Assembly (NCBI GenBank): GCA_041690595.1
Contig: JAWLHB010000003.1
Location: forward strand, 62,001 to 126,000
From: Lentisphaeria bacterium
GTDB lineage: Bacteria > Verrucomicrobiota > Lentisphaeria > JABSQK01 > JAWLHB01
Length of the DNA: 64,000 nt
Reading direction: 5' to 3'
Part shown: positions 24,001 through 27,000 of the stretch, one piece after another
Numbering within the stretch: position 1 is the first letter of the stretch
Layout of the letters: each line of letters begins with the position of its first letter
Program-made: the position numbers

Positions 24001-27000
24001 CGTCATGCGCTCCGGGCCGATCCACTCGACCAGTTGCCGGCGCACCGCGAGCCACAGATCCGTCACCCGGGTCATGATGGCGGCGAAGTCGTCAGGCGTT
24101 TCGATCATGGCGACCATGGCTTCGCTGCCAAGCATGGAAGCGACCAGATTGAAGGGGCCCTGCATGTCCGGCAGCGCGATCTTGAAAGCGTCAGGGGTGA
24201 GCGCCTTGTAAAGCTCGATCTCCTCGCGCAGTTGAGGCATCATGCCGCCGTGCAGTGGGTCGGGCGCTGGCTGATCCAGCAACTGACGCATGGTGACCGT
24301 GTGCGCGGGGGTATCCTGCGCTTCGGGGTTGAGCGGAATGCCGAACCAGGTGATCAGCGTCCCCGTACCGCGACCGAGGCCGAAAGCGGTGGTGACCGGG
24401 TTGAGCATCTTGAGCGGCTCGAGCATGCCGATCATGCGCCGCGCCACCACCTGCTCCGCCGGATCGCCCACCTTCACGCGGGGCAGTTCGAGCTCATTGG
24501 TCGGAACCCACGTATCTTCCGGATCAGCCAGGTGGTTGATGCCCATGACCGGCCATCGGCGACGCTTCCCTTGCAGGATCGCCTGCTGCATGGCCAGGGC
24601 ATCACGTTCGGGGTGCGCCTGCATCGTGGCGCGGACAAAGTCGATAGTGTCGGCAAGCGAGTCGAGCGTCAAGGCGGCATTGGGAGACATGAGAAGAGCC
24701 TCAGGCGGCGGGGTCTGGAGTTGTGGGTTCGGTCAGGCGGGTTGCCAGGTAATCGCCCGCAGTCACCAGCTCGAACTCCCTGGCGATCTGCGCGACCGTA
24801 AGCTGCGGCGAACGCGATTCGAGCATGAAACGTACGTTCTCCTGGTCAAAGGTCAACCATACATCCTTGCCATGGCGACGCAGTATCGGCTCGATCTGCT
24901 GCTGGTTGTAGTCGAAGTGAAAGACCGCCGAGTCGAAGTTGATATCCGCCACACAAATGGGCACACCAAAGCCGAAGCGGAGCGTTTCATGGCGGTAGCC
25001 ACCCGCCGCGACCTCTCGCCCGAGAGGGTTGATGATGCGGCTCCAGGCAGGATAGGCAAGGGCAATCGGTACCTGGAAAGTGGCGGCGAAGTAATTGAGC
25101 TGATCACCTCCCGGAAAGAGCGACGGGCAGAGGAGCAGTTGCGCTCCTGCCTCGATCTGCCGCGCGAAAGCTTGCGGAAAATTCATGTCGAAGCAGATGG
25201 CGCCGCCAACGTGAATGTCCTCCCACAGCATGACCGGATCCTGCCGCGGCTTGACCCCAGCCTTCAGCTCGCCGTCAGTCGGGAATTGCTTGGTATAGCG
25301 CCCGACCGGGGTGCCGTCACGCCCGACCAGATGGAAGACATTGTACAGGTCGTCCCCTTCCCGCTCCATGATCGGAACGGTGACGGCGATGTTGTGTGCG
25401 GCGGCGCATTCGAGCAGTTGCGCGCAGTCGCTCTGCCAGTCATCGAGGGCAATATCCGCCAGGCTGAGCGCCCGCGGGTTATCCGGTCCATCTCCGGCAT
25501 ACTCGTTCATGGTTTCCGGAAGGACTGCCAGATCGCACCCCATCCTGGCCGCCAGGGAAACCCAGCGGCAAGCCTCCGCCAGTTTCTCATCGAGGTCGGT
25601 GAAGTCGCGATTTGACAGGGATATGGCAGCTATTCGTTTTATCTTCATGCAGGCGCGGTACTCCATGTTTGCATCTTCTTGGACGATGACAAAAGATGGC
25701 CGCCCCCTCATGCATTACCATCGCAATCCAGCTTTATCTTCGGTCTTTTTCTCGTATAGTGCAAGATGAAGATCCTTGCCATGGAAGCATACTACGGCGG
25801 TAGCCACCAGGCTTTTCTCGATGGCTGGCGCCAACACAGCCGCCATGATTTCACCCTCCTGACGCTTCCCCCCTACAAGTGGAAATGGCGGATGCGCCAC
25901 GCCGCCATTACCTTCGCCGACGAGGCGAGGCGCCTCCATGACTCGGGCGTCTCCTTCGACATCCTCTGGTGCTCGGACATGCTCAACCTGGCATCCTTTC
26001 TTGGCTTGGCACCGGCGGCCTGGCGCCCTCTGCCAAGCGTCTGCTACTTCCACGAAAACCAACTGACCTACCCGGTACGCCACAAGGATGATCGCGACTA
26101 TCACTTCGCCTTCACCAATATCACCAGCGCCCTGGCCGCCACGGAAATCTGGTTCAACTCCGCCTTCCACCGCGGTGAGTTCCAGGAGGCACTGGCCGTC
26201 TTCTGCGGGAAGATGCCGGATCATGCGCCGACCGAGGCTGGCGGCACCATCGAAGCGCGCTCGCGCATCTTGCCGCCGGGCATTCAACCACCCGACCACA
26301 TCCACCAGTACCAGCCGGGAGCGCCGCTGCACCTGCTCTGGGCAGCACGCTGGGAATACGACAAGGCACCCGAACAGTTCTTTGCGGCCATCGATCGCCT
26401 CGCCGAGAGCGGCTGCGACTTCCGCCTGAGCGTCCTCGGCGAAAGCTTCAAGAATCGACCCGAAATCTTCGACAAGGCCCGGGTACGACACCGGGAACGG
26501 ATCGTCAACTGGGGCTATCAGGAGACCTCGGAGGGCTATGCGCGTGCCCTCGCAGCCGCGGATGTGGCGATCTCCACCGCGCGACATGAGTTCTTCGGTA
26601 TCGGCCTGGTTGAAGCCATGGCCGCCGGACTCTATCCCCTGGCGCCGAGGCGGCTGGCCTATCCCGAGGTGCTCGACGCCGATCGCCATCCTGAGTTCCT
26701 CTACGATGGAGACGTTGACAGCCTCGTCCATGCGCTGCAGCTCTTGATCGAGCGCCACGCCACCGGTGATCTTTGGCAGGGAGACGCCGCGCGCGGACGC
26801 AGGCAGGCGGAACACTACTGGTGGTCCGCGCTCGCGCCTGCTATGGATGACCGGGTCGAGCAGCTTGCCGACGGCGCCCTTTGAGCATTGGAGTTGCAGC
26901 AGGGCCTCTCAGCCATTAAGTTACCAGTCAACCGGGAGCGCCCGGCAAGTCAAGAAAACACAATGAACAGGGTTCAGTTTATGAAACGTACACTACAGGT

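Follow-up and report, generated by a model that had tools for sequence, protein, structure and literature searches.

A full-length bacterial homologue of the animal tRNA-queuosine mannosyltransferase QTMAN as a candidate queuosine-tRNA glycosyltransferase

Does a bacterial relative of the animal enzyme QTMAN attach a sugar to queuosine (Q) in tRNA? The question was raised by a reading frame in the window (the whole stretch of DNA that was analysed, 64,000 nucleotides in length), which an earlier note had interpreted as the gene of a bacterial Q glycosyltransferase. The paper behind animal QTMAN (GTDC1) is said to be Zhao et al., Cell 2023; no discussion of bacterial QTMAN homologues was found in the set of papers searched. 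Animal QTMAN (GTDC1) is presented as a tRNA-queuosine alpha-mannosyltransferase in two sources (PMC11755703; bioRxiv 10.64898/2026.06.28.735034). In line with the earlier view that glycosyl-Q is an animal speciality, mannosyl-Q (ManQ) and galactosyl-Q (GalQ) are treated as eukaryotic nucleosides, and a 2020 review (PMC7694415) lists neither of them for bacteria. The novelty of a bacterial QTMAN is nonetheless smaller than had been assumed, as NCBI already names close relatives of the protein 'tRNA-queuosine alpha-mannosyltransferase domain-containing protein'. The window adds one carrier with no special context, and the protein (P0001) is a good experimental lead at the level of the family.

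The reading frame was intact, and its position was recovered as previously reported, together with the QTMAN_N, Glyco_trans_1_4 and Glycos_transf_1 domains (Table 1). The QTMAN_N model was matched from end to end (model positions 1-168 of 168; E 7.4e-58; 195.5 bits compared with a Pfam gathering score of 25), and this was the single match, and sole copy, in the 8.1 Mb genome. The Glyco_trans_1_4 (E 5.7e-13) and Glycos_transf_1 (E 1.5e-10) matches were both above their cut-offs. Within QTMAN_N, the motifs GGSH (12-14), W39/W41 with R42, YFHENQLxYP (94-103) and FNS (130-132) were present. The C-terminal domain has the E-x7-E motif by which retaining GT4 enzymes are recognised. The AlphaFold2 model had a mean pLDDT of 95.6 and a pTM of 0.91, and the fold was without a membrane segment. 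With a pI of 5.9 P0001 is slightly acidic, and the animal QTMANs are close to it (median 6.5). P0001 is a cytoplasmic GT-B glycosyltransferase in which a complete QTMAN_N domain is followed by the GT4 donor domain.

Table 1. Coordinates of the QTMAN-family gene, its domains and motifs, and the neighbouring genes, as positions in the window.
Feature	Position	Strand	Basis or remark
QTMAN-family glycosyltransferase gene (P0001)	25766..26884	+	ATG start, 372 aa
QTMAN_N domain, acceptor-side Rossmann half, residues 2-173	25769..26284	+	PF12038
C-terminal GT4 (Glycos_transf_1) donor-binding domain, residues 189-329	26330..26752	+	PF13692 (Glyco_trans_1_4, residues 189-329), PF00534
R195-W-E-x-D-K200 motif	26348..26365	+	Alignment of 36 bacterial and 20 animal sequences
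E275-x7-E283 motif (HEFFGIGLVE)	26588..26614	+	Alignment of 36 bacterial and 20 animal sequences
CN_hydrolase (nitrilase)	24701-25711	-	Pfam
Cyclophilin PPIase	26888-27568	+	Pfam; signal-peptide-like N-terminus
GT9 gene, heptosyltransferase II	27574-28695	+	TIGR02195, 165.8 bits vs cut-off 134.6

The comparison with animal QTMAN was made against 20 sequences, among them orthologues from cyprinids, salmonids, a frog, birds and reptiles. The protein was 30.3-38.0% identical to these over 344-360 aligned columns, which agrees with the 32.7-36.1% given before, and BLASTP matched the tapeworm protein with an E value of 3e-50. When 36 diverse bacterial members were aligned with the 20 animal sequences, conserved being taken as a frequency of at least 90%, 41 of the 47 positions conserved in the bacteria were conserved in the animals too, with the residue unchanged, and 15 of the 41 were within the N-domain. 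R195, K200, E275 and E283 are among the residues common to both groups; R195, K200 and E283 were invariant in the 36 bacterial members and E275 was present in at least 90% of them, while all four reached at least 90% in the 20 animals. P0001 carries every family-invariant residue. K200 aligned with K296 of the 458-aa bird GTDC1 (P0392) and, by way of the bird protein, would correspond to K296 in the human numbering. A K296A form of human QTMAN, whose purpose was to test for a dependence on manQ, is described in a preprint (bioRxiv 10.64898/2026.06.28.735034).

The bacterial and animal proteins share the order of QTMAN_N followed by GT4 as well as the GGSH, YFHENQLxYP, RWExDK and HEFFG..E motifs, although the bacterial proteins are ~370 aa in length and the vertebrate ones ~430-470 aa, with interdomain insertions in the latter. 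They differ too in their setting, as the host bacterium is predicted to make Q de novo rather than to salvage queuine. Identity between P0001 and the animal proteins was 36.3% in the N-domain and 35.9% in the donor domain; among the bacterial members, the N-domain was conserved above the donor domain (46% vs 38%). Conservation of the N-domain as seen here would be expected if the acceptor were constant across the family. A single branch of the tree parted the bacterial from the animal sequences (SH-aLRT 100). P0001 is a true, intact and full-length member of the QTMAN family, and not a generic GT4 enzyme.

The nearest relatives of P0001 were Planctomycetota/Phycisphaerae proteins with 52-61% identity and, given these together with the well-supported branch between bacteria and animals, the gene does not represent eukaryotic contamination. 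The spread of the family was patchy. In a phylum sample of 301 genomes of at least 90% completeness from 147 genera (the host genome was called Planctomycetota in this analysis), QTMAN_N was found in 13 genomes and 12 genera, and in 0/2 other genomes of the host's order. Across species, a pattern scan with one genome for each returned at least 597 loci encoding QTMAN-family proteins. None of 14 model genomes, E. coli and B. subtilis included, had QTMAN_N, which would explain why a glycosyl-Q nucleoside has gone unseen in bacteria. Such patchiness might also be expected of a functionless relic, or of a foreign gene on a contig that was mis-binned or is a contaminant, but we regard this as highly improbable: the frame is intact with all of the family-invariant residues and a very confident model, the closest relatives were counted as belonging to the same phylum, and the G+C content around the gene (0.61-0.62) is the same as in the rest of the window. 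A search of 2.9 million viral contigs (viral_contigs) found no relative of P0001, and a phage or mobile origin was discounted on this ground.

A PDB sequence search returned no QTMAN structure, and its matches were confined to the C-terminal half of the protein. Similarly, Foldseek retrieved only generic GT4/GT5 enzymes (E 1e-15 to 1e-11, TM up to 0.74, 11-21% identity). The nearest solved folds were MshA, BshA, GlgM, sucrose-phosphate synthase, tetrahydrobiopterin glucosyltransferase and SenB, and the acceptors of the nearest solved GT4 folds are mostly small molecules. The solved retaining GT4 enzymes (MshA, BshA, PimA, GlgM, WaaG-like LPS transferases) resemble P0001: they have a GT-B fold and E-x7-E, and their C-domain likewise opens with an Arg/Lys pair; however, their N-domains are not QTMAN_N, and the identity to P0001 is the low value given above.

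Acceptor shifts are known among GT4 enzymes. The bacterial proteins could thus combine the same fold and chemistry with another acceptor, either a soluble small molecule (a 7-deazaguanine nucleoside or base in free form, for example queuosine, queuine or one of their precursors, or else some unrelated diol, thiol or sugar-phosphate) or another RNA site, with the family recruited to Q34-tRNA only later, in animals. We consider this possible but rather unlikely. It would accord with the distant small-molecule enzymes found by Foldseek and with a protein that is not basic. It would also accord with the fusions: six longer bacterial proteins were found, among which no RNA-binding or Q-pathway domain recurred as a fusion partner and the partners seen (GH2 mannosidase-like, asparaginase and peptidase M20/M28) occurred once each, whereas RRM domains are present in crustacean QTMANs. 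A change of acceptor is, however, hard to reconcile with 15 N-domain positions at which bacteria and animals share their residue, and with an N-domain conserved to the same degree as the donor domain. Moreover, although the genes of small-molecule pathways often cluster, no biosynthetic partner gene recurred beside the QTMAN gene; when 732 neighbour ORFs were clustered, no family reached beyond 7/80 related loci, and a conserved operon partner was rejected.

The neighbours named in the earlier note, a PPIase, an LPS heptosyltransferase II and a nitrilase, were all confirmed (Table 1). The GT9 gene lies 690 bp downstream of the P0001 gene, two genes on and on the same strand, with no predicted + strand terminator between them. 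Taken with its score over the TIGR02195 cut-off and with the automatic JGI name for relatives of P0001, 'glycosyltransferase involved in cell wall biosynthesis', this arrangement could suggest an envelope or LPS-core glycosyltransferase acting with the heptosyltransferase, in the manner of enterobacterial WaaG. Among the 80 related loci, however, the GT9 gene adjoined the homologue in none (0/80), as was the case for the nitrilase (0/80), and the cyclophilin recurred in 3/80; no polysaccharide or LPS cluster was found around the QTMAN genes of these loci. Between the two genes lies that of a cyclophilin whose N-terminus resembles a signal peptide, no NCBIfam LPS/EPS model came near its cut-off (the best, EpsE, reached 35.5 vs 400 bits), and the N-domain is QTMAN_N, in a fold without a membrane segment. 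A role in LPS or another glycan had been regarded as a live alternative; with GT9 beside the homologue at none of the 80 loci it loses weight, and we now think it quite unlikely. The QTMAN gene is an orphan with no glycan-cluster context. Enrichment of RNA or translation genes beside it was likewise discounted, with 9/121 such genes at +/-1 and 9/121 at +/-3,+/-4 (the first 121 of 171 ORFs); position-based neighbour counts leave out 11/80 loci without an indexed QTMAN ORF, where the greedy caller took the antisense frame.

A Q glycosyltransferase would require Q-containing tRNA as its substrate. The whole de novo Q pathway had been claimed for the host on the strength of eight listed genes, five of which were recovered here, namely tgt, queA, queG, queC (in two copies) and queF. 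The host has one gene each for the GUN tRNAs Asp(GUC), Asn(GUU), His(GUG) and Tyr(GUA). From these genes, Q is expected in the tRNA of the host, and the presumed substrate, Q34 in a GUN tRNA, would be available to the enzyme. The genome also encodes GDP-mannose 4,6-dehydratase (gmd, 577 bits), which makes a GDP-mannose pool likely. A bifunctional GMP/PMI (TIGR01479) was not found in the host genome, which says little, as other types of GDP-mannose pyrophosphorylase exist and gmd is present.

The co-occurrence of QTMAN_N with Q genes was analysed across genomes. In 80 other carrier genomes, TGT was found in 74/80, QueA in 74/80, both in 69/80 and either in 79/80, the only carrier with neither being a 2.3-Mb MAG. 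In the high-quality phylum sample, TGT was present in 12/13 carriers and the thirteenth (G311) has QueA, so that TGT or QueA was found in 13/13. G311 is 100% complete and had no TGT match; an assembly gap is more likely than a true loss of tgt, as QueA is present. The background is, however, equally high: TGT was found in 293/301 genomes of the phylum sample, and a TGT match was lacking in 1/13 carriers vs 7/288 non-carriers. As TGT is present with or without QTMAN_N, the co-occurrence of QTMAN_N with tgt and queA has no discriminating power, it is uninformative with regard to a non-Q34 acceptor as well, and it counts only as a failed refutation.

The earlier reading of the protein as a bacterial Q glycosyltransferase is supported in part, by family membership, by the conserved residues and by the Q pathway and GUN tRNAs of the host, while the co-occurrence test does not bear on it. 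On balance, we judge it somewhat more likely than not that P0001 is a queuosine-tRNA glycosyltransferase, whatever its sugar and tRNA species, and the host bacterium may glycosylate its own tRNA. P0001 is a soluble, cytoplasmic, retaining GT-B (GT4) enzyme, orthologous in kind to animal QTMAN; its acceptor, donor sugar, tRNA species and physiological effect are inferred. Its C-terminal domain would most probably bind a nucleotide sugar, by analogy GDP-mannose, and its QTMAN_N domain would hold the tRNA, by analogy tRNA-Asp. The enzyme would pass the sugar to one of the cyclopentenediol hydroxyls of queuosine, which occupies position 34 in a mature tRNA with a GUN anticodon. Found in a few per cent of bacteria, the modification would be optional and would be added to Q-tRNA late.

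If the bacterial enzymes do act on Q34, the origin of this wobble decoration would move back into bacteria and glycosyl-Q would not be an animal invention. Codon-biased translation in bacteria would gain a further variable, and small, soluble, easily expressed enzymes of ~370 aa with very confident models would be at hand for structures of QTMAN-tRNA recognition. We give roughly even odds to the broader proposal that a few per cent of bacteria, the host included, make glycosylated Q in tRNA by a QTMAN-type enzyme, and that the animal and bacterial enzymes descend from one ancient Q34-tRNA glycosyltransferase. Under this proposal the bacterial sugar or GUN tRNA might differ from that of animals, and the modification might coexist with glutamyl-Q in some species.

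A bacterial parallel is provided by GluQRS (YadB), which esterifies glutamate to Q34 of E. coli tRNA-Asp. Like the activity proposed for QTMAN, this is an optional and patchy decoration of the Q34 cyclopentenediol, but GluQRS has an unrelated fold (a truncated GluRS) and a different chemistry. In the host genome, no GluQRS match (TIGR03838) was over the cut-off, the best reaching 101.7 vs 276.7 bits. Mutual exclusion of the two was considered and rejected, as GluQRS and QTMAN_N were found together in at least 5/80 carriers, which suggests that they are not simple alternatives at Q34.

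The earlier note's observation of a full-length QTMAN homologue in this bacterium was borne out by the open reading frame of P0001 and by Pfam matches over both halves of the protein. QTMAN_N (PF12038), the N-terminal domain of the animal tRNA-queuosine mannosyltransferase QTMAN/GTDC1, was matched at residues 2-173 over 168/168 model positions (E 7.4e-58, 195.5 bits), followed by Glyco_trans_1_4 and Glycos_transf_1 at residues 189-329. All NCBIfam models were far below cut-off, the top being EpsE (35.5 bits vs 400). AlphaFold2 modelling with a 36-sequence alignment gave a two-Rossmann GT-B fold at very high confidence (mean pLDDT 95.6, pTM 0.91) with no low-confidence segments and no membrane segment. 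The N-terminus forms the first beta-strand of the model, so P0001 has no signal peptide. In the PDB, Foldseek matched the model solely to generic GT4/GT5 enzymes of the retaining type, 11-21% identical (MshA, GlgM, glycogen synthase, sucrose-phosphate synthase, BshA, PimA and tetrahydrobiopterin glucosyltransferase). PDB sequence matches were confined to the C-terminal half (best E 4e-5), and the sequence search of the PDB found no QTMAN structure for comparison.

A length-shifted search recovered the tapeworm protein P0276 (UniRef: tRNA-queuosine alpha-mannosyltransferase), which was 33% identical to P0001 over 375 columns (BLASTP, E 3e-50) and itself matched many animal QTMAN/GTDC1 sequences. 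An alignment was made of 36 diverse bacterial members and 20 animals (flatworms, krill, mollusc, annelid, echinoderms, amphioxus, fishes, frog, turtle, lizard and bird), to which P0001 was 30.3-38.0% identical over 344-360 columns. Of 47 positions at least 90% conserved in the bacteria, 41 are occupied by an identical residue in 90% or more of the animals, in the N-domain (G12, S13, H14, W39, W41, Y94, H96, E97, Q99, Y102, P103, A125, N131, S132, P151) and in the C-domain (W192, R195, W196, E197, D199, K200, P202, F219, G225, G250, Y258, L262, S270, E275, F276, F277, G278, E283, A284, G288, P291, P294, L297, Y299, P300, E301). We take E275-x7-E283 to be the retaining-GT4 signature. In GT-B enzymes the acceptor is bound by the N-domain; its conservation between P0001 and the animals (36.3%) was similar to that of the donor domain (35.9%), and among bacterial members it was higher (46% vs 38%). 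In a quick, unrooted maximum-likelihood tree all 20 animals fell on one side of a branch (SH-aLRT 100) and P0001 lay among the bacteria, so that P0001 represents neither contamination nor recent animal-to-bacterium transfer; being unrooted, the tree is silent on which group is older. K200 was aligned with K296 of a 458-aa bird GTDC1. A 2026 preprint describes a K296A form of human QTMAN, made to test the need for the human lysine in forming mannosyl-queuosine (manQ) (bioRxiv 10.64898/2026.06.28.735034).

The host genome (8.1 Mb, 99 contigs, 97% complete), of which the window covers C3:62001-126000, contained one QTMAN_N copy. The nearest homologues of P0001 were 52-61% identical, those named being Planctomycetota or Phycisphaerae MAGs. 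Profile searches for five of the eight queuosine-pathway genes previously claimed for this host recovered tgt (526 bits), queA (440 bits), queG (327 bits, above cut-off), two QueC genes and one QueF gene. The GUN tRNA genes were present one apiece: tRNA-Asp(GUC), Asn(GUU), His(GUG) and Tyr(GUA). A gmd gene was matched at 577 bits, and a GDP-mannose pool is therefore presumed; no bifunctional GMP/PMI was detected in the genome. GluQRS, the bacterial enzyme decorating queuosine at the wobble position (Q34) of tRNA-Asp, had no match above cut-off in the host.

QTMAN_N was sparse yet widely spread over the phyla, with no fewer than 597 species loci and, at E ≤1e-30, 996 clusters at 50% identity. 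It was present in 13/301 phylum genomes at least 90% complete and in 12/147 genera, and was absent from the two other genomes of the order and from 14 model genomes. No relatives were found among 2.9 million viral contigs. Among 80 other carriers, TGT was present in 74, QueA in 74 and both in 69; one, a 2.3-Mb MAG, had neither. In the high-quality phylum sample TGT was found in 12/13 carriers; the one without it, G311 (100% complete in 180 contigs), carries QueA, and the lack of tgt there is probably an assembly gap. As TGT was present in 293/301 phylum genomes, carriers or not, the Q34 reading survives the co-occurrence test, which it might have failed, without gaining support. GluQRS was above cut-off in 5/80 carriers, with four further short frames at 261-276 bits; mutual exclusion of the two Q34 decorations was thus rejected. 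TGT matches with one in-frame stop (TGA/TAA) were seen in 14 same-class genomes (G219, G144, G086, G132, G195, G174, G237, G082, G333, G093, G306, G141, G228, G372), where the profile alignment may overrun the natural stop codon.

The queuosine-glycosyltransferase reading proposed in the earlier note was partly supported by family membership, the pathway genes and the GUN tRNAs, with nothing contributed by TGT co-occurrence. From these sequence comparisons, glycosylation of tRNA Q34 by a QTMAN-type GT4 enzyme is the best-supported mechanism, and we lean modestly towards it. P0001 would transfer a sugar to Q34. In the main rival, this enzyme family acts on another soluble acceptor; we regard this as possible and distinctly less probable.

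Upstream of the P0001 gene, separated by 54 bp, lies a divergent CN-hydrolase gene; downstream are a cyclophilin gene and a GT9 heptosyltransferase II gene. The cyclophilin ATGs precede a hydrophobic signal-peptide-like stretch and the start is likely one of them; the protein is thus probably exported and the true gap after the P0001 gene about 80-95 bp. At 80 loci of QTMAN homologues from other species, nitrilase (0/80), GT9 (0/80) and cyclophilin (3/80) were rarely or never neighbours, and clustering of all neighbour ORFs gave no family at more than 7/80 loci. By Pfam, 121 immediate neighbours from the 67 loci that could be indexed were a miscellany with no polysaccharide cluster. The homologue gene is fairly described as an orphan glycosyltransferase, which counts against the LPS/glycan role raised earlier and is neutral for a tRNA role; P0001 is unlikely to be an LPS glycosyltransferase. 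RNA- or translation-related genes made up 9/121 immediate neighbours (RlmN-like, RF-1-domain protein, SmpB, three RluA-type pseudouridine synthases, RsmE, KsgA, CCA/poly(A) polymerase) and likewise 9/121 control genes 3-4 positions off (aaRS fragment, MnmG, LepA, QueD, QueE-like radical-SAM, MiaB-like, AspRS, TruB, SUI1), so enrichment was rejected.

Features of the window, the host genome (G000) and related loci (L numbers)
Feature	Location	Strand	Remarks
P0001 gene	window 25766-26884	+	ATG start, ORF of 372 codons
Cyclophilin ORF	window 26888-27568	+	TTG start as listed; ATGs at 26964 and 26981
tRNA-Arg(TCT)	window 963-1038	-	sole Rfam/ARAGORN RNA gene within the 64-kb window
tRNA-Asp, anticodon ATC	G000:C12:7723-7818		96 nt (ARAGORN)
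DndB-like, TGT-like, DndB-like, second QueC	G000:C59:8088-12189 (L003, 8088-11459)		consecutive genes; TGT-like PF01702 28.5 bits, second QueC 255 bits
QueD (PTPS) and QueE-like radical-SAM genes	L036:10283-11432		one Zixibacteria MAG, single case; 3-4 genes from QTMAN homologue
RluA-type synthase, AspRS, TruB	L053:2276-9427		one Pirellulaceae MAG, single case; synthase adjoins homologue, others 3-4 genes off

P0001 adds one protein to a known family already named in databases. Bacterial QTMAN homologues were not mentioned in the available portions of bioRxiv 10.64898/2026.06.28.735034, bioRxiv 10.64898/2026.03.22.713446, PMC11755703 or PMC11695743. A wider literature search on them, whose scope did not include Zhao et al. 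2023 (Cell), returned nothing relevant, and 'DUF3524' did not occur in the literature searched. In a 2020 review, ManQ and GalQ (galactosyl-queuosine) are assigned to eukaryotes, not bacteria (PMC7694415).

The tRNA-Asp(ATC) call was unusual in length and anticodon; it may be spurious, or the tRNA may contain an intron or be degenerate. The C59 gene row looks like a DpdA/DpdB-type 7-deazaguanine-in-DNA system, apart from the tRNA queuosine pathway. Fusions of QTMAN homologues to other domains were one-offs in the search for longer proteins. In P0272, a single-member protein of 1244 aa from a 57.8-kb contig, GH2 beta-mannosidase-type domains (PF02837, PF00703, PF17753, PF17786, PF22666) are fused to a QTMAN-like core that shares 52% identity with P0001; this may be either a genuine fusion or run-through by the gene caller. 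In precomputed Pfam data, six crustacean homologues of 709-754 aa (P0302, P0313, P0350, P0352, P0377, P0391) had RRM domains (PF00076, PF16367, PF23085) joined to the QTMAN_N and GT1 core.
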